Positions 2,660 to 63,675 of a stretch of 64,000 bases of DNA are shown here, in pieces; positions within the stretch are counted from its first letter, which is position 1, and every line of letters starts with the position of its first letter. The stretch lies in contig JBDRJN010000014.1 in the NCBI GenBank assembly GCA_043814965.1, forward strand, positions 3,084 through 67,083, given 5' to 3'. The notes under the pieces were generated by a model that searched no databases, had not been told where the DNA came from, and saw only the letters and a program-made list of their open reading frames with translations. Source of the stretch: Candidatus Omnitrophota bacterium (GTDB taxonomy: Bacteria > Omnitrophota > Gorgyraeia > Gorgyraeales > Gorgyraeaceae). The translations under genes were made by a program, and so were the position numbers.

Positions 2660-4589
2660 GGCGATCGGGCTGCTGTTGTCCTTTTTGCCTTTAGGCCTTT
2701 CTCTCTTTATAGGGCGAAGGCTGGGGGATATGGCATATCTTGTAAATTCAAAAAGAAGGTCTATCGCATATGCCAATCTAAAGGCTAGCTTCCCTGACAA
2801 AAAAAGAAAAGAGCTTAAAGAGATAGCCAGGTCCCATTACAGAAATCTGGGGATGAATATCATAGAGCTTTTAAAGTTTCCGCAGATGAGCCCTTCTTAT
2901 CTAAAAAGACATATTGAGTTTAGGGGCACGGAAAATACCGAAAAAGCGATTTCACAAGAAAAAGGCGTAATATTATTGACAGCTCACTTTGGAAATTGGG
3001 AGATATCTTCTCTTGCTTCAAATAGTCTTGGATACAAGATGAGCGTTTTTGCAAGGGAACAAAAATATAAAAAACTAGATAACCTGCTTAATCGATATAG
3101 GCAATTAACAGGATGTAAGGTTGTAACAAAGGGTTTTTCTGTAAGAGATATTATAAAAACGCTTAAAGATAATGGCATTGTCGCGATGCTGGCTGATCAG
3201 GATGCAGGAGCTAATGGAGTATTTGTTGATTTTTTTGGAAGAAGGGCTTCCGCGGCTACAGGCCCTATAGTCTTTGGCCAGAAGACGGGAGCAGTGATAC
3301 TGCCTTCTTTCGCAAGAAGAAAGGATGATCTTGATCATTTTGTAGAGATCAATAGACCCTTTGAGCTTATAGATACAAAAGATAAAGAAAAAGATCTCAA
3401 GGCAAATTTAGAAAACCTGAATAAGATCCTGGAGGGGTATATAACAAGATTTCCTGACCAATGGCTTTGGTCTCACAAGAGATGGAAGAGTTCTCCTGAC
3501 AGGAAAGTGCTTTTATTGAGCGATGGAAAGGCAGGGCACCTTAACCAGTCTTTGTCAGCAGCTGACCTGGTAAAGGACGCATTGCGTAGAAGACTCGATA
3601 GGAAGGGCATAAAAGAAAATGAGATCGTAGATATAAAAATCTGTGAGATTGAGTTTAAAAATAGGTTTACCAGGATATTTTTGGATATTGCAAGCGTATT
3701 TTCCGGCAGGCGCTGCCAAGGCTGTATGAGGTGTTTAAAGTTTTCCCTTACAAAAGAATCTTTTAAACGTGTCGCGGCCCAATATGCCGATATTGTGGTC
3801 TCGTGCGGGTCATCCCTGGCATCTGTAAATATATTTTTGAAATACGAGAACAATGCTAAAAACTGTATAATCATGAAACCAGGTTTCTATAATCGCGGCA
3901 AATTTGATAGGGTTATGATCTCAAAACATGATATGCCTTTTAAAAAGAGCCCTAACTTAGTTATTACAGAACTTCCGCTGAACAATATTACAAATATAGA
4001 GATGGATAAGAAAACCTCTGATGTGTTTGGGGAAGATATCGCTAAAGGCGGGGTAGGATTATTGGTAGGAGGCGATGCAAAAGGTTTTAGCCTGGATAAA
4101 GAATATACTGAAAGGCTCTTGGAAGCAGCCTTAAGGATATGCAAAGATAGATCACTAGGCTTATTTGTAACTACTTCTAGAAGGACCCCAGTCGAAATAG
4201 AAATGTATCTTAAAGACAAGCTTAAGGATGATGTATTATGTAGATCTCTTGTAATAGCTAACAAAGGTAATGTACAGGGCATAGTACCTGCGATATTAGG
4301 GGTAAGCGATATTATTTTGACAACACCAGATTCAGTATCTATGATCTCAGAGGCTGTCTCTTCAGGGAAATATGTAGTGGTTATAAAAGAGCATAAAAGT
4401 AAAATTAGACAGGGGCATGAGAATAAGTACGATAGGATCATAGCTAACTTGGAAAGAGACGGATACATAGAGACAGCTTATCCTTCTGGTATTTACGACA
4501 AGATAGCATATCTTCTAAAAAATAGGCCCAAGATCAAGGTTTTAAAAGATAGGGACATAGTGAGAGATTCTTTGGAATCAATATTATGA
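2598..4589 (+). CDS. lipid A biosynthesis acyltransferase (LpxL/HtrB family) fused to a C-terminal ELM1/DUF1022-like domain
   Basis: The N-terminal approx 300 aa carry ILLTAHFGNWE and MLADQDAG, as in LpxL/LpxM. From about nt 3500 the segment KVLLLSDGKAGHLNQSL matches the DGKAGhxNQslG start of the PF06258 (ELM1/DUF1022) family. The start is uncertain; 2598 overlaps the end of lpxK, and 2619 is an alternative ATG. Confidence 0.7.
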   Translation: MRSLRIKMNSIIDFLLFIIVKAIGLLLSFLPLGLSLFIGRRLGDMAYLVNSKRRSIAYANLKASFPDKKRKELKEIARSHYRNLGMNIIELLKFPQMSPSYLKRHIEFRGTENTEKAISQEKGVILLTAHFGNWEISSLASNSLGYKMSVFAREQKYKKLDNLLNRYRQLTGCKVVTKGFSVRDIIKTLKDNGIVAMLADQDAGANGVFVDFFGRRASAATGPIVFGQKTGAVILPSFARRKDDLDHFVEINRPFELIDTKDKEKDLKANLENLNKILEGYITRFPDQWLWSHKRWKSSPDRKVLLLSDGKAGHLNQSLSAADLVKDALRRRLDRKGIKENEIVDIKICEIEFKNRFTRIFLDIASVFSGRRCQGCMRCLKFSLTKESFKRVAAQYADIVVSCGSSLASVNIFLKYENNAKNCIIMKPGFYNRGKFDRVMISKHDMPFKKSPNLVITELPLNNITNIEMDKKTSDVFGEDIAKGGVGLLVGGDAKGFSLDKEYTERLLEAALRICKDRSLGLFVTTSRRTPVEIEMYLKDKLKDDVLCRSLVIANKGNVQGIVPAILGVSDIILTTPDSVSMISEAVSSGKYVVVIKEHKSKIRQGHENKYDRIIANLERDGYIETAYPSGIYDKIAYLLKNRPKIKVLKDRDIVRDSLESIL

Positions 4590-6721
4590 ATATACTGCAG
4601 ATCCTTCCAGCGCTTGAAGTAGGCGGAGTTGAGACAGGGACCATCGATCTATCCCGTGAACTTATGAAACGGGGCCACAATGTCATCGTTGTCTCTAATG
4701 GCGGTAAGATGGTAAAGCATCTTGTAGACATGGAAGCCCGCCATATCAAGCTGCCTGTACACAAAAAGTCACTAGTGACTATTATAAAGATGATAAAGAG
4801 ATTAAGGTATATTATACAAGAAGAAAATGTAGATATTGTGCATGCAAGATCCAGGGTCCCTGCCATAATAGCTTTTTTTGCTGCACGTTCTACAAGAGCG
4901 AACTTTATAACAACAGCGCATGGTTATTATTCTACGCATCTATTGAGCAAGGTGATGGGATGGGGTAAATTTGTGATCGTCGCATCAACTATCATGGGAA
5001 GGCACATGATAGAGAATTTTAAAGTCCCTCATGAAAGGTTAAGGTTTATACCCAGGGGCGTTGACCTTGAAGGCTTTAATTTTAATCCACCGGATCAATC
5101 AGATGCAAAATCGGAATATAAGATAGGTATAGTAGGCAGGATCACTCCGATAAAAGGGCATAGTTTTTTCTTGCAGTCTATCGCAAGAGTAATAAGGATA
5201 TTTCCTAAAGTAAAGATCCTTATCGTAGGCGACGCGCCTAAGGAAAAGCCTGAATACAGGCGTAATCTGGAACTTCTTATAAAAAAACTTGATATAGAAA
5301 GATTTGTTGAGTTCCTGGGCTCCAGGGATGACATGCCTAAAATTATGTCTTCTCTTGATCTATTGGTCTCTTCTTCTGTGGGGCAGGAGGCATTTGGAAG
5401 AGTAATAATTGAAGCAGGCGCAAGCGGTGTGCCTGTTGTGAGTACGCGTATAGGAGGAGTTGTAGATATAATCGAGGATAACAAGACAGGCCTTTTAGTA
5501 AAACCTGGTGATATAAAAGAGATGGTGGATGCTATATTAAAAGTTTTAAAGGACAGGAATCTTGCCAGGAACCTTGCAATCGAAGCAAGAAAAAAGGTAG
5601 AAAAGGAATACAATCTTAATGCTATGGCAGAGCGTACTATCAAAGTCTATGAAGAAGCGATAGATAAGAAGCGGATATTGGTCATAAAACTTGGGGCAAT
5701 AGGGGATGTCATACTTTCCGTCCCGAGCCTAAAACTCTTAAGGAATAATTTTCCCAATGCCTTTATAAGCGTATTAGTGGGGAATGAGTCCAGGCATATA
5801 TTGAAAAAGTGTCCATACATAGACGATATAATACTATATGACAATAGATCCAGCAGCAACATAAGGTCTCTTGTAAAGATATCCAATACAATAAGATCCA
5901 AGGGGTTTGATATGTCCATAGACTTGCAGAATAATAAAATAAGTCATTTTATAGCCTGGTTCAGTTTTATACCTATGAGATCTGGTTATGATAATAAAAA
6001 ACTCGGGTTTTTGCTTAATAATGGTATCAAGTATTTAAATATCGCTTCCGGCCCCATAGAAGAACAATTCAGGATCCTCAAAAAAGCGGGGTGTGATACA
6101 TCATCAGCCTCGAGGAGATTGGAATTATGGCCTTCCAGGGAAGATTTTCTGTATGTGGACAATTTTTTAAAAAGTGAATGGATAGGTGAGGGCCAGGTAC
6201 TCATCGGGATAAATATAGGAGGAAGCTGGAAGACAAAAAGATGGCCTAAAAGAAATATCGCAAGGCTTATTGATATGTTTGCTTCAAAACATATAAGAGT
6301 TGTCATAACTGGCGCGGAGAATGAAAAGGCCTTGGCAGAAGAACTCAAGTGTATCACAAAATCAAAGATCATAGATGCGGTCTCAAAGATAGACATATTA
6401 CAGCTGGCTAGCCTTATAAAAAGGTGTAAAGTATATATTACCGGAGATAGCGCTCCTATGCATATAGCTTCGGCTATGGGAGTAGAGTTTATAGCACTGT
6501 TTGGGCCGACAGACCCCAGGAGGCATGTTGAGCCAACAGCTAAGGCGGCTGTTATAAAAAAAGACCTGGCCTGTGCACCTTGCTATAGGTCAAAGTGCAA
6601 GAATATCATCTGTATGGATAAGATCAGCGTAGATGAGATATATAGATTGGTGATGGAAAAAATAGGAGATAATAAATCCGAAATCCGAAATCAGAAATCC
6701 GAAACAGATCCAAGATCTTGA
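4586..6721 (+). CDS. bifunctional glycosyltransferase: N-terminal GT4 (GT-B) domain fused to a C-terminal GT9 heptosyltransferase domain
   Basis: The N-terminus has ILPALEVGGVETGTIDL and the EAFGRVIIEAGASGVPVV EX7E-like region (GT4). From about nt 5670 it has ILVIKLGAIGDVILSVP and GDSAPMHIASAMGVEFIALFGPTDP, as in WaaC/WaaF/RfaQ-type GT9. The last 15 codons overlap a heptamer repeat. Confidence 0.7.
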   Translation: MNILQILPALEVGGVETGTIDLSRELMKRGHNVIVVSNGGKMVKHLVDMEARHIKLPVHKKSLVTIIKMIKRLRYIIQEENVDIVHARSRVPAIIAFFAARSTRANFITTAHGYYSTHLLSKVMGWGKFVIVASTIMGRHMIENFKVPHERLRFIPRGVDLEGFNFNPPDQSDAKSEYKIGIVGRITPIKGHSFFLQSIARVIRIFPKVKILIVGDAPKEKPEYRRNLELLIKKLDIERFVEFLGSRDDMPKIMSSLDLLVSSSVGQEAFGRVIIEAGASGVPVVSTRIGGVVDIIEDNKTGLLVKPGDIKEMVDAILKVLKDRNLARNLAIEARKKVEKEYNLNAMAERTIKVYEEAIDKKRILVIKLGAIGDVILSVPSLKLLRNNFPNAFISVLVGNESRHILKKCPYIDDIILYDNRSSSNIRSLVKISNTIRSKGFDMSIDLQNNKISHFIAWFSFIPMRSGYDNKKLGFLLNNGIKYLNIASGPIEEQFRILKKAGCDTSSASRRLELWPSREDFLYVDNFLKSEWIGEGQVLIGINIGGSWKTKRWPKRNIARLIDMFASKHIRVVITGAENEKALAEELKCITKSKIIDAVSKIDILQLASLIKRCKVYITGDSAPMHIASAMGVEFIALFGPTDPRRHVEPTAKAAVIKKDLACAPCYRSKCKNIICMDKISVDEIYRLVMEKIGDNKSEIRNQKSETDPRS

Positions 6722-6786
6722 TCTGCAAATGACAAGGATATTATTATTTAAAATTTTCGGATTTTGATATTCGAGTTTCGAATTTT
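6674..6786. repeat. inverted arrays of tandem GAAATCC heptamers (hairpin-forming element) overlapping the 3' end of the GT4-GT9 gene
   Basis: The 5' arm (AAATCCG)x2 AAATCAG AAATCCG AAAC (6674-6705) lies inside the last 15 codons. The central palindrome AGATCCAAGATCTTGATCT is at 6706-24. The complementary 3' arm TTTTCGGATTTTGATATTCGAGTTTCGAATTTT is at 6754-86. Confidence 0.7.
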
Positions 6787-9988: not shown

Positions 9989-10975
9989 ATGAACGCTATG
10001 AAAATGGATAATATAAATAAGGTCCTATTTATCACGCTTAGCAATATCGGAGATGCGATACTGACATTGCCGGCATTGACATGCCTTAAGGATAATTTTA
10101 AGGATGCCAAAGTGGATGTAGTAGCAGGTCCAAGGTCAAAAGAGGTCTTCATAAAAGACCCCTCGATAAATAAAATATTTATATACGATAAACACGCTTC
10201 ATTAAAAGAAAAAATAGGTTTTGTAAAGAACCTGCGGAAGGAAAGATATGACCTAGCGGTGGATATGAAGACGAGCCTTATGCCGTTATTGGCGGGCGCT
10301 AGATATAGGAATAGTTTGATTAGCTTCAAACCCTCAGGCCTTAAACATAAAAGGCTTATTCATTTAAACAAGCTAAGGGGCCTTGGCCTGGCCTGTGGAA
10401 CCAGGAGGAATATTTATATAGATCAGGGCGATAGATCGAAGATAGATAACATACTTAAACAAAAAGGCGCCAAGGATACTGATACATTGATCGGTATCAG
10501 CCCAAGCTGTTTAAGCTTGACTAAAGAATGGAGAATGGATGGTTTTATAGAAGTAGTAAAAGGGCTGGTCAAAAAAGCCGATACCAGGATTATTTTAATA
10601 GGAGAAGAGACAAAAAAAGATGTATCAGGGCATATCTTAAAGAGTGTATCCAGCGCTAACATTATTGACTTAACAGGTAAAACCGATCTAGGCGAACTTT
10701 TTGCCGCTATAGAAAGGATGAAGATATTAGTTAGTTGTGACAGCGCATCTATGCATATAGCAAGTGATTTAGGGATCAGGGTAGTAAGCATCTTTGGCCC
10801 GACAGATCCTCTAGAATATGGGCCTGCTGGCAAATACAGTGTTGTGATACAGAAAAAACTTGACTGTGTTCCATGTAAAAGGCCTGCTTGCAGGTTCAAT
10901 AATGAATGTATGGATGAGATAAAGCCAGAAGAAGTGATCGAGGCGGTAAATAAATTACTTGAAAGCAATATGTAG
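9989..10975 (+). CDS. ADP-heptose:LPS heptosyltransferase (GT9)
   Basis: VLFITLSNIGDAILTLPAL and CDSASMHIASDLGIRVVSIFGPTDP match GT9. Confidence 0.75.
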   Translation: MNAMKMDNINKVLFITLSNIGDAILTLPALTCLKDNFKDAKVDVVAGPRSKEVFIKDPSINKIFIYDKHASLKEKIGFVKNLRKERYDLAVDMKTSLMPLLAGARYRNSLISFKPSGLKHKRLIHLNKLRGLGLACGTRRNIYIDQGDRSKIDNILKQKGAKDTDTLIGISPSCLSLTKEWRMDGFIEVVKGLVKKADTRIILIGEETKKDVSGHILKSVSSANIIDLTGKTDLGELFAAIERMKILVSCDSASMHIASDLGIRVVSIFGPTDPLEYGPAGKYSVVIQKKLDCVPCKRPACRFNNECMDEIKPEEVIEAVNKLLESNM

Positions 10976-11009
10976 TATTTAGTATATAGTATGTAGTTGG
11001 GAGAATTGC

Positions 11010-26600: not shown

Positions 26601-26606
26601 TAAAAA

Positions 26607-26707
26607 CTCGAAATACTAAATTCGAAATCCGAAACTCGAAACAATGTCTAAATTTAAATTCGAATTTATAATTTGTTTCGGATTTCGGGTTTCGTGCTTC
26701 GAATTTC
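26607..26707. repeat. inverted arrays of tandem CGAAAYC heptamers (hairpin-forming intergenic element)
   Basis: The 5' arm CTCGAAATACTAAATTCGAAATCCGAAACTCGAAACA (26607-26643) is complementary to the 3' arm TGTTTCGGATTTCGGGTTTCGTGCTTCGAATTTC (26674-26707). The arms flank a 30-nt AT-rich spacer. The element starts 7 nt after the aminotransferase stop codon. Confidence 0.7.
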
Positions 26708-38000: not shown

Positions 38001-38009
38001 GATTTATTT

Positions 38010-38263
38010 AAAGCTAAAAAGGAGCTTGTTCACTCATGAGAAAACTTTTCCCCTATAGTGCCAGTATATATTTTGACACTTGGGGCCGCCTTTTATTCTG
38101 TGTTTTGCCGGGACTCGAAAAACTCGTCCGCCAATATGTGTGGCGGACTTCAGACAGTTTCGAGTCTTTTAGCCTCATAAAATGTGACATAGAAACCGCC
38201 AAAACACTTCATAAAAGGCTAAATTTTCTAATTCGCGAACAATCATCCTTTTTAGCTTAAATA
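38010..38263 (+). repeat. structured repeat element copy B (about 254 nt; terminal 13-bp IR AAGCTAAAAAGGA / TCCTTTTTAGCTT; conserved hairpin core at 38113-38155)
   Basis: The core GAAAAACTCGTCCGCCAATATGTGTGGCGGACTTCAGACAG is near-identical to 21035-21075. It is nested in a second IR (GACTCGAAA..TTTCGAGTC). The overlapping ORF 38036..38260 is judged spurious. Confidence 0.5.
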
Positions 38264-38315
38264 TATTTTAGCAAGTTTAATTAGGTTGAAAACATTATAT
38301 GCTACATACTAAAAA

Positions 38316-39401
38316 ATGACACGACAGATAAAAGTTGGAAAAGTTAAGATCGGCGGCGGGGCTCCTGTGTCAGTGCAGTCTATGGTAAAGACTGAAACGA
38401 CTAAGGTCCAGTCAGTCATTAAAGAGATAAAGGCCTTGGAGGATGTTGGGTGTGAGATCGTAAGGCTTGCAGTAAAAGATAATAAAGGAGCTTCTTGTTT
38501 AAAAAAGATAAAGAGTTCTGTCAATATACCCATTGTAGCTGATATTCATTATGACTATAGGCTCGCGCTTTTAGCTATTGAAAACGGGGTGGATAAGATC
38601 AGATTGAACCCGGGCAATATCTATAAAAAAGAACATGTCTTTGAGGTCGCTAGGCATGCTAAAAAGAATAGGATCCCTATTAGAGTAGGGGTGAATTCCG
38701 GGTCATTAAAGACACAAGACACAAGACACAAGACACAAGACACAAGACACAAGTCACAAGACACAAGTCACAAGTCACAAGTTGATATTATGGTGAAGTC
38801 AGCGTTAGATTATATAAAGCTCTTGGAGAAGGCTGGATTTTACGATATAATAGTCTCATTAAAGGCATCGGATGTGCTTATGACAATAGATGCTTATAGA
38901 AAGTTTTCTAAGGCATCAGATTATCCTCTTCACCTTGGCGTAACTGCAGCAGGCCCTAAATCATCTGGCCTGGTCAAGTCTTCTATAGGCATAGGGGTGT
39001 TATTACTAGAAGGCATAGGGGATACGATCAGGGTATCCTTGACAGGGAATTCTTCCAGCGAAGTCATGGCTGCGCAGAATATTTTGCAGGCTATAAACTT
39101 AAGGAGATTTTATCCCGAGATCATCTCTTGCCCAACATGCGGGAGGTGCCAGGTAGATTTGAGCCAGATAGTGGCTAAAGTAGAGGAACGGATTACGGAT
39201 TACGGGTTACGGGTTACGGGTAAAAAAAATCCGAAGATCGCTATAATGGGCTGTGAAGTCAATGGCCCGGGTGAAGCAAAAGAAGCTGATTTCGGCATTG
39301 CATTTGGCAAAGGGGCCGGAGTATTGTTCAAAAAAGGTAAGATTATAAAGAGAATCGAAGAAAAAGACACTATCAAGACACTCTTACGCTATTTAGGGTA
39401 A
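38316..39401 (+). CDS. ispG: 4-hydroxy-3-methylbut-2-en-1-yl diphosphate synthase (GcpE), carrying in-frame heptamer-repeat insertions
   Basis: KVGKVKIGGGAPVSVQSM and the C-terminal 4Fe-4S cysteines (CPTCGRC..GCEVNGPGE) match IspG. The 9 x ACACAAG tandem at 38711-38773 encodes TQDTRHK-type repeats in a surface linker. Confidence 0.9.
   Translation: MTRQIKVGKVKIGGGAPVSVQSMVKTETTKVQSVIKEIKALEDVGCEIVRLAVKDNKGASCLKKIKSSVNIPIVADIHYDYRLALLAIENGVDKIRLNPGNIYKKEHVFEVARHAKKNRIPIRVGVNSGSLKTQDTRHKTQDTRHKSQDTSHKSQVDIMVKSALDYIKLLEKAGFYDIIVSLKASDVLMTIDAYRKFSKASDYPLHLGVTAAGPKSSGLVKSSIGIGVLLLEGIGDTIRVSLTGNSSSEVMAAQNILQAINLRRFYPEIISCPTCGRCQVDLSQIVAKVEERITDYGLRVTGKKNPKIAIMGCEVNGPGEAKEADFGIAFGKGAGVLFKKGKIIKRIEEKDTIKTLLRYLG
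38711..38773 (+). repeat. 9 tandem heptamers (ACACAAG / TCACAAG) inside ispG, in frame (63 nt)
   Basis: Direct reading: (ACACAAG)x5, TCACAAG, ACACAAG, (TCACAAG)x2. A second array at 39186-39222 is (CGGATTA)x2(CGGGTTA)x2. Confidence 0.9.
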
Positions 39402-39426: not shown

Positions 39427-41157
39427 ATGCGTTGGTCAAAATATTTTATACCTACATTAAAAGAGATCCCTGCTGAAGCAGAGGCAGTAAGCCACAAGCT
39501 CATGATAAGAGCAGGCCTTATAAGAAAACTTGCTTCAGGAGCTTATACTTATTTACCGCTTGGCCTAAAGGTCTTAAAAAAAGTAGAGAATATTATACGG
39601 GAAGAGATGGATAAAAAAGGCGCGATAGAGCTTTTTTTGCCTTCCCTCCAGCCAGTTGAGTTATGGCATGAATCAGGTAGGTATAAGGCCTTGGGAGAGG
39701 ATCTTATAAAGTTTAAGGATAGACATGATCGCGTTATGGTATTCGGGCCTACACATGAAGAAGTTATAACTGACCTAGTCAGAAATCATATAAAAAGCTA
39801 TAGACAACTGCCCATAACATTGTATCAGATACAGACAAAATTTAGAGATGAGGTGCGCCCTAGATTTGGCGTGATGAGAAGCAGGGAATTCATAATGAAG
39901 GATGCGTATAGCTTTGATAGGGACACGCAAGGCCTTGATAAGAGCTATAAGTCAATGTATGAGGCATATGAGGCTATTTTTAAAAGGTGCGGCCTCGAGG
40001 TAATAGCAGTAGAAGCTGATTCAGGGGTCATGGGTGGAGATGTCTCTCATGAATTTATGATGTTAGCTGAAAGCGGTGAAGATAAATTAGCGCATTGCGT
40101 GTCTTGCGGTTATGCTGCAAGTTTAGATGTTGCAAGTTGCAAGACACCTGCCTGCCGGCAGGCAGGGCAAGACACAAATTGCAAGATGCAGGCGATGAAA
40201 GAAGTAGACACTCCAGGGGTGAGCACTATTGAGAAGGTCTCAGAACTCTTAAAGACAAAGCCAGATAAAATGGTAAAAACGCTTATATATATATCGGATG
40301 AGAAACCAGTCGCAGTGCTCATAAGGGGTGACCAAGAAGCAAATGAAGCAAAGATAAAAAAATATCTTAATACTACTTCATTAGAGATGGCAGGCGAGGA
40401 CACTATTAAAAAGGCAACAGGAGGTCCTCTTGGTTTTTCAGGGCCAGTAGGCCTCAAAGATATCAGGATAATAGCTGATAATTCCATAAAGGCCATGTCA
40501 AATTTTATAACAGGAGCCAATAAAAATGACAAGCATCTTTTGAATGTCAATCTGGAAAGAGACCTTAAGGTCAAAGAATATGGGGACCTCAGGATGGCTG
40601 GAGAAGGCGATATATGTCCTAAGTGTTCGAAAGCAATAAAGATAGAAAATGCTATTGAAATGGGGCATGTATTTAAATTGGGCTTAAAGTATTCAAAGGC
40701 AATGTCAGCTGAATTCCTGGATGAGGACAGTACGCTTAAGCCAATGGTAATGGGATGTTATGGCATAGGGGTCAATAGGATCATAGCAGCTTCTATAGAG
40801 CTGCATAATGATAGATCAGGCATAATATGGCCTAGGTCTATTGCGCCATTTGATGTAGTTATAGTTCCTATAAATTATGAAAAAGAGGCTGTTAAAACAT
40901 GCGCTGACAAAGTATATAACTTATTGAAAGAAAATAAGTTAGATGTATTGATAGATGATAGGGACCTGAGCGCTGGAGTAAAATTCAATGATACTGAACT
41001 TATAGGAATACCTCTTCAGGTAGTTATAGGCGAAAGAGGCCTTAAAAATAATACAGTTGAGATCAAGGAAAGACAGCAAGGCCAAGCAAAGCAAGTCAAA
41101 AACCAAGCCAAAGATATTCTAGCAGCAATCCTTAATCTATCGGATAAAGATCAGTAA
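39427..41157 (+). CDS. proS: prolyl-tRNA synthetase (bacterial type with INS editing domain)
   Basis: Class II aaRS motifs and the ProRS-specific anticodon-binding C-terminus are present. Length is 576 aa. It contains a palindromic repeat insertion at 40124-40192. Confidence 0.9.
   Translation: MRWSKYFIPTLKEIPAEAEAVSHKLMIRAGLIRKLASGAYTYLPLGLKVLKKVENIIREEMDKKGAIELFLPSLQPVELWHESGRYKALGEDLIKFKDRHDRVMVFGPTHEEVITDLVRNHIKSYRQLPITLYQIQTKFRDEVRPRFGVMRSREFIMKDAYSFDRDTQGLDKSYKSMYEAYEAIFKRCGLEVIAVEADSGVMGGDVSHEFMMLAESGEDKLAHCVSCGYAASLDVASCKTPACRQAGQDTNCKMQAMKEVDTPGVSTIEKVSELLKTKPDKMVKTLIYISDEKPVAVLIRGDQEANEAKIKKYLNTTSLEMAGEDTIKKATGGPLGFSGPVGLKDIRIIADNSIKAMSNFITGANKNDKHLLNVNLERDLKVKEYGDLRMAGEGDICPKCSKAIKIENAIEMGHVFKLGLKYSKAMSAEFLDEDSTLKPMVMGCYGIGVNRIIAASIELHNDRSGIIWPRSIAPFDVVIVPINYEKEAVKTCADKVYNLLKENKLDVLIDDRDLSAGVKFNDTELIGIPLQVVIGERGLKNNTVEIKERQQGQAKQVKNQAKDILAAILNLSDKDQ
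40124..40192 (+). repeat. heptamer/palindrome element inside proS coding sequence
   Basis: GTTGCAAGTTGCAAGACAC, then the CCTGCCTGCCGGCAGGCAGG palindrome at 40147-66, then GCAAGACACAAATTGCAAG. The same palindrome (1 mismatch) recurs at 49555-49574. Confidence 0.7.
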
Positions 41158-41286: not shown

Positions 41287-44200
41287 ATGACAGTATGTTC
41301 TTTAAGGAAAACGTGTTCTGTCTTTTTAATAGTGATCTTTACTATTACTAATATTGCCTATGGAGCTCCCAGCGAAAGGTCCTTTTTTAAGAATAAAAAA
41401 GTAGATTATAAGAAATTAAGCACCCAAAGCCAAGAACAGCTCGAGAAGAAAAAGGCTGTTTTAAGCGGTGAAGATGTAAAAAAGACAAGTAAAAAACCTT
41501 CCAAGGCCAAGCAAATAGATTTTAGCGCCCATCTAAGCGATATATCAGAGATAAATATCCCCGGCGAATTAGGAAGAGTCGTTGAGGTATATAAAGCCCC
41601 TGATTCTGAAAAAGACAAGAACAGGCTTGTAGTACATATCCAGGACCTCCATGCCAATCCTGAGGCTACACTTAACCTGGCAAGTATATTGGAGATATTG
41701 GTAAAAGATTATAACCTGGATCTAATATGTTCTGAAGGCGCGGAAGGAGAGGTTGATACATCAAGCGTTTCCAGTTTTCCTGACGCTGAGATCAGGAAAA
41801 AGACAGCAAAGCTATTTGTAAATTCAGGAGAACTTACAGGAGAAGAATACCTTTCTATTACCAAATACCCGGATCTTCCTATATGGGGAATAGAAGATAA
41901 GGATATATATTTCAATAATATAGTCCAGTTCAATAAGATAATGCAGTTTTCCAACTCCAGTTATGTCTTTATCTCGCAGTGCACAAATGCGCTGGATGCG
42001 TTGAAGCCTTACATATACTCAAAAGAGATCCTGGAATTGGACCAGAAAGAATCCGAATACGATAATGGTAATCTGGAGACATCTTTGTACCTGGATTATG
42101 TCTTGCCTTATGTGGAGCAGTTCAATATATCGAAAGACAAATATAAAAATATCTCTCTTTTAACAGAGACGATGGCTAAAGAAAAGACTATTGACCAGCA
42201 AAAGGTGATGAAAGAATCGCAAGACCTTTTAATGGACCTTCAGAATATGCTTTCAAGAAAAGGCGGAGAATCTGACCTGGAAGCCCTGATAGCCAAGGCA
42301 GAGCTTTTTAAGAATAAGAAAATATCGCCATTCTCTTTCTATAATTACCTGAAGGGCCTGGCTCAGAAGCACCTGAAGGAGAAATCAGAGAGCTATACGT
42401 ATCTAAATGAATTTATAGATTATCTTACCAAGGTAAACGATCTTGATGCTTCAAAGCTTTTTACTGAGATCGGGGAATTAAGTTATGAGATAAAAGATAA
42501 TCTTGCCAAAAAAGACGAAGAAAAGCTTCTTACAAAGGTTATACGTAATGCAAAGTTCTTGACAGGGTTTTTTAGCCTCAAGATATCCAATGAAGAGCTT
42601 GACTACTACCTGGAAGACAAACCTTCTTTTGAAGTATCATTCTTTAAGGAATTCCTAGAGCCCAACCTTAAAAAATATAATATTACGAGTTACGTGGATT
42701 ATAACCCTGAATTTATAGACAATAAGTTCAGCGAAATAGAGGAGTTTTACGGTACTGTAAAATCGCGAGATTTTTCCATGTTCAATAATTCCATGTCTCA
42801 GATCGAAAGTAGAAGAGCAAAAGTCGCAGCCCTTATATCAGGAGGTTTTCATACCAGGGGCATAACAAAACTATTAAGAGAAAAAGGTTATTCTTATGTA
42901 GTTATATCCCCTTACTCTTCGCAGGAGACAGATGAAGAGAACTACCACTTCCTTCTCTCAGGACAGCGTAAACCAATAGAAGAGCTTATAAGGCAGCTAG
43001 ACGTAGAAGAGACAGTCGATAGATTATCTTCCAATGATAATCTGCGCAGTTTAATGCGTTTCGGGAATAATACAGTAGAGGCCTGGAATAATTCTGTAGT
43101 ACCTCAAAAGATAGCTGAGATATTGGGATTAAAAGTAGAAGACGTACAATTAGAGCCTTTATTGAATGATGCTGCAATTGTGCTGGGATTAAGCAGCGGC
43201 GCAGAAGCATGGCATAGTTCTCCGGTAGGTATGGAAGTAAGGTCTCCAAGAAAAGGAGAGATAATATTAAAGTTCGATGATAATAGTTATGTAAAGATGA
43301 CGAGCCTTGGAGAGGTAAAACGTGTAGATAAAAAAGAATTCAGAGGAAAGACCACTCTTAGCATAACTCCTAATGTAGACGGAACTATAAATGTAGCTGA
43401 AACTGATAGAGGCAAAGGTTCGCCCCTGGAGTTGTTAAAATTCATGGTGGATGGGACATATTACGAAGGGGAGTCCATATCTAAAGCAGATTTAGTAGCT
43501 GGAAGGTCTTTTTCTGTATCTACTATAGACCTAGAGATAAAAAGCCTTACAGAACTCGGACTATTAAAAAAGAATAGTGATGGGACATATGAACTTACGA
43601 GCTATATAGGCCTAGAGCAATATAATAATATTAAAGCAGTTACAGGTCCTATAGTACAAGTTAATGGTAAAAACGAGGGATTAAATCGTTATAGGATAGA
43701 CGACCTGTCAGAAGATAAAAAGAATGAATTTAAAAATGCCATAGACTTTGCTGTAACTTACCAAAAGACCCCATCAAACTTTCTAAAAAAATTAATCCTT
43801 GCAGGAGGCAAGCTTGATATCAAAGGTACCGGTGAATCTGGCGAGGCCCTTGCGCTTTATTATGCGGATCTAGCTGAGACTTTTGCAGGACCTACTGGAA
43901 TAGAATCTGTGGCATTGAGTAAAAATATTACATTTGCTGAGGCAGGGCTTATAGCAGATATTGTAGATCATGCCAGCGCGCTTAATATTACAGGAACCAG
44001 AAACAGCATAAGTCAAGCTTTTGAAACAGCAAAAAATCTTTCTGTATCACGAGAGGAGCCTAGATACAGTATAAAAGAGACGTCACTAAGTTCAGATTTT
44101 GAAATAGCAAGAAATCTTCCTGATATGTATAGAGATCTTTCCCCGGAAAAGATCAAAGACAAGATCATAATAGTACGAGGCAATTTAAACGCGCCTTTGG

Positions 44201-47200
44201 ATAAATCTGGAGAAGTAAGTGATCCTACCAGGCCGGATAATATTGATAAGGCTGTTACTTATATAATTGAAAATGGAGGTACACCTGTTGTCTATGGCCA
44301 TCTCATGAGGCGTGAAAATAATATATCTATGGAGCCAGTAGCTAGTTATTTATCAGATAAATACGGACAAGATGATGTAGTTTTTCATAAGGGTAGCATC
44401 ACTAAAGACGGATTAACGATCAGTCGAAATAATATTATAAGGGGTAAGATCAATATCCTTGAAAATATAAGGCTCGTAGACAAAGAAAATGAAGCAAAGC
44501 TTGGCAGGCAGATCGCATCTCTTTCTGAAGACAAGATATTAGTAGCTGACGCGCTTGGGGATGAAGGATCAAGCGATGTCGTACATGTCTATAATGCCGC
44601 TAGCGAGGTATATCAGGGGCCGGAAGAAAGAAGAGAATTTTCTGAATTGGAAGATACACTGAAAAATGGCGTTGATGTAGTATTGTTCGGTGGATTTAAA
44701 ATAGAAAAACTGGATCTTTTATTAAGGCTGGTCGATGCCCTGAGAGATGGCGGTGTTGTCTTATTGGGGTCAGGACCTTCAGACCACATCAGGAACGATC
44801 CTGAAATAAAAGAGCAATTAAAAGGCCTTATTGATGCAGGAAAGATCATCTTAGCTGAAGGGGATAAGTATTATTTTAATAAAGTAATGGGAAGGGACAT
44901 GCCAGGAGATATCTCTTCTCAGGATCTAGAGAGATACTCCAATATCCTTGATAACCTTAAACCAGGCCAGAGGGTCTTATTTAATGGGACAATGGGTTTT
45001 ATGGAGAAAAAGGATAGTAATGAAAATATAGAAATATCCTATAGAGAAGGTACTAAAAAGATACTCGAGAAAGTATCTGAGATCAGTGAAAAAGGCGTAA
45101 AAGGCCTTGGAGTCGGAGGAGATGGTACAAAATGGGCCAGGCATTATAGATTGAATAAGAAGGAAAATATAATGCTGTCTACAGGAGGTGGAGTTTCCCT
45201 AAGCCTTATTACGCATGAACCTTTAAAAGGTACTAAAGCGCTTTCCAATAGAGCGCAAACTCAGAAAATTGCAAAGCGAGATTTTTCATCTGAGTATGGC
45301 TATGTAGCTGAGGATTTAGTCGGTCCGCTAGCTAGCATGGCAAAAACTACCAGCCAGGATAATACACCTTACGCAAAATACGCATCAGATAGAGATAATG
45401 TAAGCCCCTCTACCATAAAGACACAACCTGCTATTGGCCGTCCGGAAGCGGTAGCGTATGAGGCAGATTCTCCTTATAATATAATAACGCAGTTACAAGA
45501 AGCTAAAAAAACTGACTATGCCCGAAACTTACAGGATGTAATGAGTGTCGCATTAAGGGATTATCCGGAATTGAGAGATATTTCTTTTAAGATAAAAATA
45601 ATCAGCAACAGCCAGGAAAACCTTGCTGAATATATGCCAGGCCAGGAAATGATAACAATAGATGAGTCTATACTCGCTAATTTTGAACTTATGCGCCAGG
45701 AGCTTATCTCGGAAGAATTCCGCCATATGCTATATAATAATCTTGTACGGTCAGTAAGAAATAAAGATGTAACGCCTAGGCAGAGACTTGTAGAAGAGGC
45801 TGCCACAGATATGCAGAAATTTAGGGACCTTCTTAGGATACAGACAGCCGAGGGAAGAGCTGCTCTTATCGGGCCTTTGATCTATTCTACTGATAAATTC
45901 AATTTCTACAGGCTGCTTTTGAGAACTATACCGCAGGGAAAAGAAAGGAACGATGTCCTGGATATTCTTCTTCGAGACCATTTTATATCAGAAGATTTTA
46001 GAAATAATTATAGTGAGCGTAAAGGGATAAGCGGAGATGAGGAAAGGCAGGTAGAGGCCTTAAATACTCATTATAAAAACAATTCTGTATTTTCTCCGGA
46101 ATTACAGCGCTTGATGATTAAACCTATAACGCTTGAAGAAGTGAAAGCTTATGAAACCGATTTCAATAATATCAGGCTAGAGTATAGAGCGCAGAAGATG
46201 GCTGAAAAGCCGGCATCAGCTGAAGATACATGGACAGAGGTTACTAAGAAGTTTACAGATAAGGCAGAACAATATGAACGTGCAATGATACTTACTGAGT
46301 TAGATAAGATCGCTAGCGGCGACTATGTGGCTGAGGATCTAATCGGTCCGCTAGCTATTAACCAGCTTCCTATAGATGTAAGTGATGATAGAGATACTGT
46401 AGGAATTCTTTTGTCAGCAGAAGGGTTACTTGGAAAAGGTTTTATTAGCGAGAGAAGAATAGATAATAACAATGATCTCGACAGGACCAATCCTTCTAAG
46501 CCAGCTTACTATATTGACCGCATGGAGAATGCATTAGAAGAGCACAGTACATATGATGAGATAATACTCGCAGTTATAGATGACAGGATGAAAACACAGG
46601 TCTGGAAAGAGATTAAAACTGCATTCCAGGGTACTGAATACGAGTTTCTTTTACGTAAGATTAGAGTAGTAAGCAAGATCAAACCTGATACAGGCAATCA
46701 TGATGCAGTAATTGAACTGCTTGATTCAGCTGTAGGTGTAGGAAAAAAGGAAGATAATGATAAAGGTCGTTTCCTTATTATACAGACTGCCGGAAGCGGA
46801 TCTAGGAACTATCCTTTAACAGCAACTGCTAAAGGCAATAAGGGCCTAGTACAGGTACCGGGAGATATTGATGGTAAGGCAGTGTTCAATAATATTATTC
46901 AGACTATCTGCCAATCACATCAGCTCCTTGATGATACCCCATCTGGGACAGTTACTGTGCTGGGATGTGACCAGCTTTGGGCTGTAGCTAATTCAGTAAA
47001 AGGTAGTGGTGCAGGCTTAGATATTCTTGGCAATAGTGTTAGCATGGATAATGTTATTAAAGAACTCGTAGATCTAGGGATTATAAATGGAGTAGAAAAC
47101 AGCAAAATTATTTCTGATCTAACTGAAGAAGAGATTGCTTTAAGAATAGACTATCTTTTTGACCCTAAGATCAGAACTGAAGAAGTAGGTCTAAAATGGA

Positions 47201-53817: not shown

Positions 53818-54798
53818 ATGAAAAAACGTATCTTAAGCGGCATGAGGCCTACAGGGCCACTTCATCTGGGACATCTATTTGGAGCGCTTTCGAATTGGGT
53901 AAAGCTCCAGGATGATTATGATTGCTTTTTTATGGTTGCGGACTGGCATGCGCTTATGAGTGAATATGAAGGCCCAAAGGACATGCCTCGATATACATTA
54001 GAATGTGTTGCTGATTGGATAGCATCTGGAATAGATCCTGAAAAAAGTGCTATATTTGTGCAATCTCATATAAAAGAGCACCTGGATCTATTTATGATAT
54101 TTTCAACATTTGTGCCGCTTGGGTGGCTTGAGAGGTGTCCTACGTATAAGGAGCAGCTTAGGGAGGTCACTACTAGGGAGCTTCATACCTATGGGTTTTT
54201 AGGATATCCTGTTCTCCAGGCTTCTGATATATTGCTGTATCATGCAGATATTGTCCCTGTAGGAAGAGACCAACTCCCGCACCTGGAACTTACTAATGAT
54301 ATAGGGGCAAAGTTCAACAATCTATACGGGAATACATTTAATGAGATAAAGCCGCTTCTTACTAATACTCCAAAACTATTAGGTACAGATGGACGGAAGA
54401 TGAGCAAATCCTATAGCAATTTTATTGCGCTCGGTGATACTGAAATAGATATTAAGAAAAAATGCTCCTCTATGTTTACAGACCCCAAGAGGATAAAGCT
54501 GACAGACAAAGGCCATCCGGATGAATGTAATCTTTATTCATATTTTGAGCTTTTTAAAAAAGATCGTTTAGAGGATGTATATGAATATTGCATAAATGCA
54601 AAAAAAGGCTGTACAGAGTGTAAAAGCGGACTAGCAAAGGTTATCTCGGATTACCTGTCTGATATAAGAAACAAGAGAGAAAAGCTCCTGAAAGATAAAG
54701 ATACGCTGATAGATATATTGAGAGAAGGAACCAAGAAGGCAAGTAAGGTAGCATCAGAGACGATAAAAGAAGTTAAGCAGAAAGTCGGTTTAACTTAG
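53818..54798 (+). CDS. trpS: tryptophanyl-tRNA synthetase
   Basis: The HIGH-type motif (PTGPLHLGHLFG) and the KMSKS motif match class I TrpRS. Confidence 0.9.
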   Translation: MKKRILSGMRPTGPLHLGHLFGALSNWVKLQDDYDCFFMVADWHALMSEYEGPKDMPRYTLECVADWIASGIDPEKSAIFVQSHIKEHLDLFMIFSTFVPLGWLERCPTYKEQLREVTTRELHTYGFLGYPVLQASDILLYHADIVPVGRDQLPHLELTNDIGAKFNNLYGNTFNEIKPLLTNTPKLLGTDGRKMSKSYSNFIALGDTEIDIKKKCSSMFTDPKRIKLTDKGHPDECNLYSYFELFKKDRLEDVYEYCINAKKGCTECKSGLAKVISDYLSDIRNKREKLLKDKDTLIDILREGTKKASKVASETIKEVKQKVGLT

Positions 54799-54900
54799 TT
54801 TATAGTTTATGGTTTATTGTTTATGGAAATAGATTTTGATCCTAAAACTCTAAACCCTTAATACGATCTATAAACTATATACTATCAACCATAAACTAAA
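54796..54900. repeat. inverted arrays of tandem GTTTATR heptamers (hairpin-forming intergenic element)
   Basis: The 5' arm TAGTTTATAGTTTATGGTTTATTGTTTATGG overlaps the trpS stop codon. The 3' arm CTATAAACTATATACTATCAACCATAAACTAAA is complementary. The spacer is 41 nt. Confidence 0.7.
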
Positions 54901-54903
54901 AAA

Positions 54904-57385: not shown

Positions 57386-58462
57386 ATGGTACCACGTAAA
57401 GCGATAGTAGATATAAAACCCTATCAACCAGGAAAACCTATAGAAGAGGTAAAGAGGGAACTAGGTTTGAGGGACGTCATAAAGATGGCTTCGAATGAAA
57501 ATCCTTTCGGGCCTTCCCCCAAGGCTGTTTCTTCTATCAAAAGACACCTCAACACCATAAACAGGTACCCAGAAGGAAGCTGTTTTTACCTCAGACAAGC
57601 TGTTTCTAAAAGGTTAAAGATAAAACAGGAACAGCTTATTTTTGGTAATGGTTCGGATGAGCTTATAGTCTTGGCTTGCCGGGCTTTTTTAAATGAAGGT
57701 GATGAAGTAATAGTAACAAGCCCTAGTTTTTTGATATACGAGATAGCCTCTTTGGCGCAAGGGGCAAAGGTCAAAAAGATACCAACAAGGTATTTTAAAT
57801 ACGACCTTCCAGCCATGAAAAAGGCTATATCAAAGAATACCAAGATCTGCTTTATTGCAAATCCGGATAATCCCAACGGTACTTATGTCTCGAAGATAGA
57901 GCTAGAGATCTTCTTAAAGGACTTACCGGAAGGAGTCCTTGTTTTTATAGATGAGGCGTATTCTGATTTTGTTGAAGAAAAAGACTATCCAAATGGCCTG
58001 GATTATATATCGAGGGGAAATGTGGTTGTAACGAGAAGTTTTTCAAAGTCATACGGGCTTGCAGGCTTAAGAATAGGCTATGGAGTATCAAGCCCTGAGA
58101 TCATTAAATACATGGAAGCTGTAAAAGAGCCGTTTAATATTAATTCCATTGCTCAGGCAGCAGCGCTTGGGGCATTGAAAGATAAAGAGTTCCTCTCTAA
58201 GGTAAAGAGGCTTACAAGGATAGGCCGGAAGTTTTTATATGAAGAGATAAAGAAAATGGGTTTGAGATATATCCCCAGCGTTACCAACTTTGTATTGGTC
58301 GAGATAGGCCAAGATAGCGATCTAGTCTGCAAGAAGCTTTTAAAAAAAGGCATTATTATAAGGGATATGAATGCCTGGAACATGAATGGCTTTATAAGGG
58401 TCACTGTTGGTACTGATAAGGAAAACAAGAGATTTATTAAAGAGCTAAAAAAGATAGTATAA
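57386..58462 (+). CDS. hisC: histidinol-phosphate / aromatic aminotransferase (class II)
   Basis: KMASNENPFGPSP and the PLP-Lys context SFSKSYGLAGLRIGY match HisC-type aminotransferases. It sits in an aromatic amino acid gene cluster. Confidence 0.8.
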   Translation: MVPRKAIVDIKPYQPGKPIEEVKRELGLRDVIKMASNENPFGPSPKAVSSIKRHLNTINRYPEGSCFYLRQAVSKRLKIKQEQLIFGNGSDELIVLACRAFLNEGDEVIVTSPSFLIYEIASLAQGAKVKKIPTRYFKYDLPAMKKAISKNTKICFIANPDNPNGTYVSKIELEIFLKDLPEGVLVFIDEAYSDFVEEKDYPNGLDYISRGNVVVTRSFSKSYGLAGLRIGYGVSSPEIIKYMEAVKEPFNINSIAQAAALGALKDKEFLSKVKRLTRIGRKFLYEEIKKMGLRYIPSVTNFVLVEIGQDSDLVCKKLLKKGIIIRDMNAWNMNGFIRVTVGTDKENKRFIKELKKIV

Positions 58463-58603
58463 AAAATCAAAAATAAAAATGCAAAATGACAAATTAAAGT
58501 TAAAAAATAAATAGCCCAACATATAGACAAGCTATAATTTTATATTTTGATTTGTAATTTTGATATTTAATCTTTAATTTTTAATTAAAAAAGAGGTGTT
58601 TAT

Positions 58604-59630: not shown

Positions 59631-59681
59631 TGGGCTGCAAGTTACACGTTACATGTGTCTTGTGTCTTGAAACTTATGACC
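59631..59681. repeat. ACAAGNC-family heptamer hairpin element ending in CTTGAAACTTATGAC
   Basis: GCAAGTTACACGTTACATGTGTCTTGTGTCTTGAAACTTATGAC begins 14 nt after the aroF stop codon. Confidence 0.65.
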
Positions 59682-59702
59682 CCATGTATATTTAATGGAA
59701 TC

Positions 59703-61959: not shown

Positions 61960-62000
61960 GGTCACAAGTCACATGCGGCTTGTGGCTTGAAACTTGTGAC
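61960..62000. repeat. ACAAGNC-family heptamer hairpin element ending in CTTGAAACTTGTGAC
   Basis: GTCACAAGT at 61961-69 pairs perfectly with ACTTGTGAC at 61992-62000. The 5' arm is GTCACAAGTCACA. It starts 5 nt after the ispH stop codon. Confidence 0.7.
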
Positions 62001-62024
62001 TTAATAAGAGGGGAGTTTTAGATC

Positions 62025-63618: not shown

Positions 63619-63675
63619 CATGACACAAGCCACAGGCCACAAGATACATGGGTCATGTGTCTTGAAACTTGTGAC
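63619..63675. repeat. ACAAGNC-family heptamer hairpin element ending in CTTGAAACTTGTGAC
   Basis: CATGACACAAGCCACAGGCCACAAGATACATGGGTCATGTGTCTTGAAACTTGTGAC begins 2 nt after the rpsA stop codon. Confidence 0.65.

Follow-up and report, generated by a model that had tools for sequence, protein, structure and literature searches.

Repeats with a unit of seven nucleotides are over-represented in bacteria according to Mrazek et al. (2007), as cited in two later papers (PMC4692102, PMC4679880), and the cause suggested there, as summarised in the second of these (PMC4679880), is that about 7 nt contact the polymerase, which would favour slippage. The GGGNATC repeats of Xanthomonas and Nostoc lie between co-directional open reading frames (ORFs) near stop codons, with a preference for four units (Rehm et al. 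2015, PMC4692102). TAACTGA direct repeats occur in marine Beggiatoaceae as well as in some Cyanobacteria and Bacteroidetes (MacGregor 2015, PMC4679880). The present work deals with tandem heptamers of Candidatus Omnitrophota, and above all with two arrays that are translated in frame inside the essential gene ispG (gcpE) on a 64,000-nt stretch, hereafter the window, of a metagenome-assembled genome (MAG) of this phylum (39.5% G+C; about 95% coding, 5.4% intergenic). Arrays occupy the same two loops of IspG in relatives, and on balance they are probably translated members of a class of tandem-heptamer modules, seeded once per slot and kept uniform by concerted evolution.

Both ispG arrays consist of 7-nt copies placed head to tail beyond chance, i.e. 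they are heptanucleotide tandem repeats (LSSR). In common with LSSR and the GGGNATC repeats, the Omnitrophota elements are tandem, over-represented relative to other periods, dispersed, mostly intergenic near stop or start codons, and about four units long; the layout of the GGGNATC repeats in particular is strikingly similar (PMC4692102). The G-quadruplex reason for four units is inapplicable here because the Omnitrophota units are not G-rich. Moreover, the Omnitrophota have many unit families, hairpin-paired arms, and fixed in-frame codon positions, whereas GGGNATC is under-represented in ORFs. The TAACTGA repeats are similar in having 2-6 heptamer copies, mostly intergenic by start codons with a few overlapping ORF ends or lying inside ORFs, and in both systems the stop-codon content dictates the permitted orientation (PMC4679880). 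They differ in that one unit is conserved across phyla, as against many units in Omnitrophota, and neither a conserved in-frame slot in an essential gene nor hairpin pairing is described for them (PMC4679880).

A further comparison is offered by the STRR heptanucleotides of heterocystous cyanobacteria, which are likewise lineage-specific and dispersed, with several tandem-heptamer families per genome. They were reportedly described by Mazel et al. in 1990, and Elhai et al. are said to have found, in 2008, small palindromic elements nested in cyanobacterial heptamer repeats; the palindromes within the proS and L089 arrays described below would be a parallel to these. The STRR consensus units are CCCCAGT, TTGGTCA, and CAACAGT. 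The present host belongs to another phylum, Omnitrophota, and its unit sequences are different, none of those listed below matching these three; the arrays are thus no members of the STRR. STRR are not known to us to occupy corresponding in-frame sites in housekeeping genes or to change in register at such sites. STRR are also mentioned in PMC4692102. Searches of the literature on Omnitrophota for heptanucleotide, tandem, or other sequence repeats gave no description of such elements. New here are the in-frame slots at fixed codons of a core enzyme, the way in which a unit of non-codon length changes in register and in concert, and the hairpin-paired organisation in many families.

Two heptamer arrays within ispG

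The ispG product of the window is 100% identical to a protein (P0001) of an NCBI Omnitrophota ('Candidatus Omnitrophica') MAG, for which the precomputed domains are Pfam PF04551 (GcpE) and PF26540 (GcpE_C), corresponding to the GcpE TIM barrel and the C-terminal Fe-S domain. In a phmmer comparison it aligned end to end with the Aquifex aeolicus IspG 3NOY over residues 2-358 (E=6.3e-88). Residues C272, C275, C313, and E320, which we take from general knowledge of IspG structures to be the Fe-S cluster ligands, lie downstream of both arrays and form invariant columns in 120 orthologues. Because these residues are intact, the reading frame of ispG is kept across the arrays, as the sequence-only reading of this DNA had held.

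Array 1 was reported by Tandem Repeats Finder at 38709-38781, with period 7, 10.4 copies, 95% matches, and a score of 125. Its units in order are AAGACAC six times, AAGTCAC, AAGACAC, AAGTCAC twice, and then AAGT, encoding the peptide KTQDTRHKTQDTRHKSQDTSHKSQV. For array 2 the same program gave 39188-39221, period 7, 4.9 copies, 96% matches, and a score of 54; its units are ACGGATT twice, ACGGGTT twice, and ACGGGT, and its peptide is ERITDYGLRVTG, i.e. (E)RITDYGLRVTG. Nine ACACAAG units had earlier been placed at 38711-38773 and (CGGATTA)2(CGGGTTA)2 at 39186-39222. Both arrays are indeed present, the second in frame and with the slightly different extent just given; the former coordinates fall inside the real tract, but this is longer than exactly nine units or 63 nt (Table 1). 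Runs of positions identical at i and i+7 reach 38 and 15 in the window ispG and 24-27 in relatives.

The AlphaFold2 (AF2) model of the window IspG, with a mean predicted local distance difference test score (pLDDT) of 89 and a predicted template modelling score (pTM) of 0.84, contains eight beta/alpha units between residues 19 and 259, followed by the alpha/beta Fe-S domain. Array 1 falls into the beta5-alpha5 loop of the (beta/alpha)8 barrel (loop 1), which connects strand 122-127 to helix 148-172, and there stands in place of the segment LEKDLLEKYGYPSAEAL of 3NOY. It is therefore a TIM-barrel loop and not the linker between barrel and Fe-S domain for which it had been taken, the model and the 3NOY alignment both putting it inside the barrel. 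Residues 131-147 are modelled as coil with pLDDT of about 50-55, the zone of low pLDDT reaching over 131-150, and in the model the helix that begins at 148 already includes the final third of the array 1 peptide. Array 2 is in the Fe-S domain, where it covers the end of helix 282-297 as well as the loop that leads to strand 307-311 (loop 2; pLDDT about 70 at 291-310). Loop 2 is 7 residues longer than in 3NOY. Judged from the model, both slots are most likely sites that the enzyme tolerates, with an array peptide that is poorly ordered and 7-residue-periodic. An inverted-repeat search found no complementary partner arm for the arrays in or near the window ispG; both are single arms.

Array slots in related genomes

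The comparison was based on an alignment of the 120 best IspG homologues, which belong to Omnitrophota wherever named and include the window protein, and on the DNA of 88 further ispG loci (L numbers below; P numbers denote proteins). The related sequence covered about 1 Mb, centred on ispG. The taxonomy of JGI contigs was assigned from IspG identity, and three distant non-Omnitrophota loci, from a contig search with a single IspG protein, were used as negative controls. A slot was counted as periodic when a period-7 exact run of at least 8 was present at loop 1 and/or loop 2.

Where IspG is about 53% or more identical to the query, most loci carry a period-7 array at loop 1, loop 2, or both. 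The arrays of relatives are usually 31-34 nt long in both slots and differ in unit: at loop 2, where the window has TTACGGG, relatives have TACCCAA, AACGACG, ACATTAC, AGCCTTC, CGAAGCG, ACTATCG, AATACAC, ACTATGG, CTATCCG, and ACTACTC. Across the 120 aligned homologues the two array positions are hypervariable, in sequence as well as in length, and a 7-residue periodicity is seen in many of the peptides. In distant IspG genes the segment SLEKDLLEKYGGPT..M is conserved and loop 2 measures 14 aa, neither being periodic. The sequence-only reading had allowed that relatives might carry the same peptide minus the heptamer periodicity; the opposite was seen, namely that these two loops hold different peptides whose coding DNA is periodic. 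The ispG sequences of L005 and L006, and those of L007 and L008, come from independent sources and are identical, arrays included; the arrays in relatives are not assembly artefacts.

Array density, counted over 86 non-duplicate loci including the window, falls with the identity of IspG to the query: it is 24.5 per 100 kb in loci with 55.5% identity or more, 7.9 in those with 52-55.5%, and 4.3 in those with less than 52%; for periods 5, 6, and 8-11 it is flat across the same identity classes. In the 43 loci with IspG at least 52% identical, ispG holds 34 of the 76 arrays and makes up an estimated tenth of the sequence. Eight neighbouring housekeeping genes, e.g. dxr, uppS, cdsA, rseP, purA, and the H+-PPase gene, had no arrays in the loci listed. 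The distribution of tract lengths is bimodal: one group, of 15-18 nt, resembles chance, and the other has its mode at 29-34 nt (about 4.5 units), inside ispG as well as outside; window array 1 is the single long outlier. It had been suggested that a unit count divisible by 3 preserves the frame, and a corresponding bias was to be looked for. No multiple-of-3 bias in tract length was found, and ispG and non-ispG tracts have the same mode; the suggestion does not fit the data.

In Haemophilus influenzae, 7-bp repeats control HMW1 and HMW2 as phase-variable contingency loci (PMC8262952). These resemble the ispG arrays in having a unit that is not a multiple of 3, so that single-unit slippage alters frame or expression. 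However, contingency loci belong to genes for surface or virulence factors, or to the promoters of such genes, and differ from one sibling cell to the next, whereas ispG encodes a core metabolic enzyme and showed no unit-number polymorphism. No frame-shifted ispG allele was present among the 120 orthologues or in ten 90%-identity clusters, all being full-length, which sets the locus apart from phase-variable ones. The ten clusters, which include no sibling of the window MAG, exhibit whole-cassette replacement and 1-aa indels and no clean three-unit change. Loop-length histograms display weak 7-aa ladders at 16/23/30 and 13/20/27.

The loop 2 arrays have a Leu codon as their common starting point, and between genomes the same substitution is found in every unit: CTATCGA in L017 and L011, CTATGGA in L016, and CTATCCG in L088 and L019. 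Decayed arrays in the same register are present in L029, L020, and L048. At loop 1 the units AAGACAC (window), AAGATAC (L007), and AAGCCAC (L006) all give a K-x-Q-x-T-x-H cycle. Such in-register change of the unit over a whole array is, on sequence grounds, the signature one would expect of descent with concerted evolution, followed by decay in some lineages.

Additionally, units are shared between ispG and other places of the same genome. A composite 31-nt array stands just upstream of the ispG ATG of L004 and again in its loop 2, with 28 of 31 positions identical and unrelated flanks. Loops 1 and 2 of L010 are reverse complements about 400 nt apart, and loop 1 of L088 holds both arms of a hairpin in frame, the family recurring at 5586-5666. 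The loop 2 unit of the window, TTACGGG, is one mismatch away from TTTCGGG, which forms the right arm (26676-26701) of an intergenic hairpin, and its loop 1 unit recurs in proS and in an element at 59652. Counting units at a distance of 1 or less as common, 10 of 74 array pairs within a locus have a common unit, compared with 40 of 1252 pairs between loci (Fisher p=2.7e-4, the pairs not being independent). Unit sharing is real in some genomes, and its generality is not claimed.

Identical arrays also occur in distant genes: L019:4552-4582 and L088:10880-10911 both hold (CTATCCG)x4.4, 31 nt, in loop 2, although protein identity between the two IspG is only 57% and the sequences on either side of the array are different. 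The proteins P0184 and P0185 of close strains differ only in the loop 2 cassette. L089 and L090 are 99.6% identical over 7.6 kb and have unrelated loop 2 arrays, with 94.4% identity in the 216 bp downstream. An inversion of the array in situ was considered for this pair and rejected, since downstream identity is 94.4% against 99.6% upstream; the array therefore marks a recombination junction. Nested in the loop 2 array of L089 is a 38-nt palindromic insert, comparable to a 20-nt palindrome in the window proS.

The same two loops harbour other kinds of insert. Period-8 arrays are found in L011 (loop 1, exact run 26) and in L032 (runs 11 and 12, both loops); a 7-nt unit is therefore no strict requirement of the slot. 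In other Omnitrophota IspG, non-heptamer inserts with SPYRRGTGQAG-like and PSPFPLPKGERVRVRG-like peptides recur in these loops, examples being P0004, P0062, and P0053, as well as P0027, P0066, P0068, P0096, and P0110, and a related PYHKGTGQA peptide is present in the ProS of L007. From their sequences, these inserts look like translated REP-type palindromic elements common to several genes and genomes.

Further heptamer elements and neighbouring features

The long ORFs of the window taken as genes are all on the + strand. When chance expectation was derived from 100 order-3 Markov simulations of the window, 12 exact period-7 runs were observed against 1.97 expected (maximum 7 in simulations). 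Periods 4-6, 8, 10, and 11 were not enriched, and periods 9 and 12 rose mildly (6 observed against 1.7-1.8 expected). Outside ispG, the longer arrays lie in intergenic spacers or at their edges (Table 1). Four of them are paired with a reverse-complement array 8-50 nt off and are among the longest inverted repeats of the window; these four, the first hairpins of Table 1, fold far better than shuffles (z -2.8 to -5.6), are the only REPIN-type inverted doublets forming a hairpin, and abut stop or start codons of co-directional genes.

Table 1. Positions of ispG, its two arrays, and other heptamer elements in the window
Feature	Coordinates	Strand	Description
ispG (gcpE) coding sequence	38316..39401	+	361 aa, intact ORF
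Array 1	38709..38782	+	10.4-10.6 tandem heptamers, about 74 nt, aa 132-156 of IspG
Array 2	39188..39221	+	4.9 tandem heptamers, aa 291-302 of IspG
Heptamer hairpin	6674..6785	+	left arm (AAATCCG)x4.4, right arm TTTCGGATTTTGATATTCGAGTTTCGAATTT; fold z -3.6
Intergenic heptamer hairpin	26604..26707	+	arms (AAAYNCG)n and (TTTCGGR)n; minimum free energy (MFE) -32.8, z -5.6
Intergenic heptamer hairpin	54795..54902	+	arms (TAGTTTA)n and (CTATAAA)n; z -4.5
AT-rich heptamer hairpin	58459..58586	+	arms (ATAAAAA)n and (ATTTTTA)n; z -2.8
ATGTAGT-type array	10963..10997	+	about 5 imperfect units, spans stop codon of ORF 9989..10975; without partner arm
Small CACAAG-family hairpin	59632..59683	+	(GTGTCTT)x2, reverse complement of AAGACAC; motif CTTGAAACTTATGAC
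Small CACAAG-family hairpin	61960..62001	+	upstream of rpsA; GGTCACAAGTCACA...CTTGAAACTTGTGAC; z -2.8
Small CACAAG-family hairpin	63621..63675	+	downstream of rpsA; ACACAAGCCACAGGCCACAAGATACATGGGTCATGTGTCTTGAAACTTGTGAC; z -3.1
proS variable segment	40129..40185	+	in-frame; short heptamer remnants GTTGCAA x2.1, GCAAGAC, ACAAATT

The left arm of the first hairpin constitutes the last 16 codons of a glycosyltransferase ORF (4586..6721), and its right arm ends just before the next gene. The second occupies the spacer between an aminotransferase gene and serA. The first unit of the third (54796) supplies the stop codon of a class I (Trp/Tyr-type) tRNA synthetase gene, and the element ends 2 nt before scpA. 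The fourth lies between an aminotransferase gene and the DAHP synthase gene. None of the window hairpins was matched by Rfam, which gave no match at the gathering threshold over the whole window, and the heptamer hairpins were not flagged in a scan for intrinsic terminators. The AAATCCG/TTTCGGA-type hairpin of the serA spacer recurs in other genomes, at L006:1-110 and L029:8585-8720. In the loop-proximal part of the right arm, L006 and the window agree at about 19 of 20 nt, and across genomes the family is better conserved than are the ispG arrays.

The three small hairpins have a common core of about 40 nt with CACAAG-type units, and the fold of the one at 59632 is no better than shuffles (z -0.6). 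The motif CTTGAAACTTGTGAC, with at most 3 mismatches, has 11 matches in the window against 1.27 expected, five of them in ispG array 1 and two in proS. Relatives of an ACAAGNC heptamer had previously been noted at 59631, 61960, and 63619 and in proS; they exist and are short, of 2-3 units. The single heptamer family then proposed gives way to several in the window, i.e. AAGACAC, AAATCCG/TTTCGGG, TAGTTTA, and AT-rich units, and the idea of a dispersed short-repeat phenomenon that also occupies coding sequence is borne out on a wider scale than claimed. The remnants in proS flank a perfect 20-nt palindrome, CCTGCCTGCCGGCAGGCAGG (40147-40166), translated in frame as PACRQAG. This gene was considered as a second strong example and downgraded, the segment being a naturally variable linker in all bacteria with only 2-unit remnants.

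Other features of the region were seen along the way. The 315-nt spacer between rseP and ispG (38001-38315) folds into a long rod-like hairpin (MFE -95.5 kcal/mol, z -6.75) that is kept in the closest relative (L004:946-1309) with about eight compensatory pair changes and is absent in L006 and L007. No Rfam match at E<=1 was obtained for this ispG leader, which could be an unannotated structured RNA or a leader of ispG. Directly downstream of proS is a giant ORF of 2740 aa (41287-49509), in which the sole Pfam match is phosphoglycerate kinase (PGK) at aa 955-1151; syntenic giant ORFs of 1211 to over 3200 aa in L005-L007 have matches to PGK, PGM, UDPGP, and PFK. Furthermore, (AAGACAC)x4 is present in five viral contigs of IMG/VR (L091-L095), one a giant-virus MAG, and these tracts are probably unrelated microsatellites.

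Origin and significance of the arrays

According to the explanation that we favour, the ispG arrays would belong to a module class, with a typical module of about 31-34 nt or 4.5 units, that extends across the sampled Omnitrophota-like relatives, its intergenic modules being mostly inverted pairs that fold into long hairpins. In ispG, modules occupy two fixed slots, the beta5-alpha5 barrel loop and the loop after the first Fe-S-domain helix, where the peptide would be tolerated without a function of its own at the protein level. We infer that each slot was seeded once, in an ancestor. Uniformity would be kept up by out-of-register pairing and repair, or by slippage, within the array, and now and then by copying or conversion with a different array of that genome as the source, and selection would discard all products with an altered frame. 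The array would then decay into an ordinary loop in some lineages. Window array 1 has probably grown to about 10.6 units, its six perfect 5' copies marking recent growth.

Several points weigh against this explanation. No slippage or conversion event was directly observed, the window IspG forms a single-member cluster, and the homogenising route is hypothetical because a change of one 7-nt copy shifts the frame of an essential coding sequence. Slippage by three units would give period 21 and not the perfect period 7 that is seen. The sharp length mode at 31-34 nt suggests a constraint beyond slippage. In a simple test, 7-mers of the ispG arrays were not significantly shared with the remainder of the locus (permutation p=0.09), for which reason family sharing is claimed on the strength of comparisons between arrays and of individual cases, and no related array was found in the available flanks of L016, L018, and L024. 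The identical array of L019 and L088 is not predicted by neutral concerted evolution or by drift. Additionally, the only close-strain pair with differing loop 2 arrays (L089/L090) is best read as a recombination junction and not as change in situ.

One may ask instead whether non-autonomous mobile mini-elements, of the REP/REPIN, MITE, or RPE kind, have repeatedly inserted into tolerant ispG loops, the shared slots reflecting tolerance and not descent; we regard this as unlikely. The Rickettsia palindromic elements (RPE), reportedly described by Ogata et al. in 2000, are similar in that repeated DNA stands in frame in conserved protein genes at tolerated surface positions and adds peptide. RPE are, however, palindromes of 100-150 bp with a family consensus that are present or absent, whereas the Omnitrophota modules are heptamer tracts of about 32 nt whose individual arms are not palindromic, with a fixed codon slot and concerted change; as the ispG tracts are direct tandem repeats of 31-74 nt without a complementary arm in or near the window ispG, they do not belong to this family, and the parallels drawn with RPE and STRR in the sequence-only reading are reasonable as analogies and fail as family assignments. 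RPE have been reviewed among MITEs (PMC10969869), and REP/REPIN elements are mobilised by RAYT transposases (PMC3116915). The latter resemble the Omnitrophota elements in that inverted doublets give intergenic hairpins, singlets occur too, and some families are genome-specific, but REP arms are imperfect palindromes with a conserved tetranucleotide and extragenic by definition, whereas the Omnitrophota arms are tandem heptamers. Mobility would account for the module duplicated in L004 between the ispG 5' region and loop 2 amid unrelated flanks, for the hairpin-forming intergenic doublets with their partly genome-specific families, for the other palindromic inserts in the same loops, the 38-nt one of L089 among them, and the 20-nt palindrome of the window proS, and for the AAATCCG-type hairpin in L006 and L029. 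Yet the common Leu-codon start and the same substitution in each unit look like descent and not re-insertion, and both slots are filled in most of the closest relatives when eight neighbouring housekeeping genes are free of arrays. Target-site duplications, terminal motifs, and a transposase were not seen, none of the 14 window ORFs (of about 52) scanned against Pfam being a transposase, and no search was aimed at RAYT (Y1 transposase).

A quite improbable alternative holds that the DNA or mRNA tract itself is used, as a platform for a protein with about 7 nt per subunit, as a processing or pausing signal, for long-range pairing, or as a reversible frameshift switch by which part of the population would turn off an essential gene. 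The widely differing units and the decay of arrays in several lineages without gene loss argue against such a role, even though the slot and its near-constant 31-34 nt are kept in sampled relatives despite complete sequence turnover. The complementary loops of L010 and the full in-frame hairpin of L088 speak for it; against it, the ispG arrays of the window are without a nearby complementary partner. The intergenic hairpins abut stop or start codons of co-directional genes, matching other heptamer repeats that prefer four units (PMC4692102), but they belong to no Rfam family and are not terminator-like. The absence of any frame-shifted allele among the orthologues and clusters examined also speaks against a switch, and the identical 31-nt arrays of L019 and L088 at 57% protein identity speak for a use of the tract itself. 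It is speculative, and we give it little credence, that an active lineage-wide Omnitrophota process, possibly guided by protein or RNA, writes or homogenises heptamer tracts of about 32 nt at fixed positions, essential genes included, and that the tracts are used at the nucleic-acid level as a platform for a 7-nt-per-subunit factor or as processing sites; if true, it would explain the perfect period-7 arrays, their constant length, and the identical arrays of L019 and L088 together. Finally, it is very improbable that the arrays are incidental, whether as ordinary low-complexity loops under peptide selection or as an assembly artefact. Both regions are hypervariable loops in all orthologues, and the array peptide is partly predicted to extend helices. 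However, the periodicity is exact at the nucleotide level, and peptide selection cannot create it because a 7-nt unit is read in all three frames; independent assemblies agree, and sequencing reads are typically longer than the tracts, which measure no more than 74 nt.

Heptamer repeats have been a bacterial oddity for decades and are treated as intergenic. As a change of a single copy would destroy the frame, the ispG arrays constitute a natural experiment on homogenisation with length change forbidden, for which out-of-register repair, ectopic conversion, and an unknown writer are the candidate homogenisers. Moreover, the tracts create hypervariable low-complexity segments in conserved Omnitrophota marker proteins, together with apparent recombination junctions, and they will affect alignment, phylogeny, and gene calling in MAGs.

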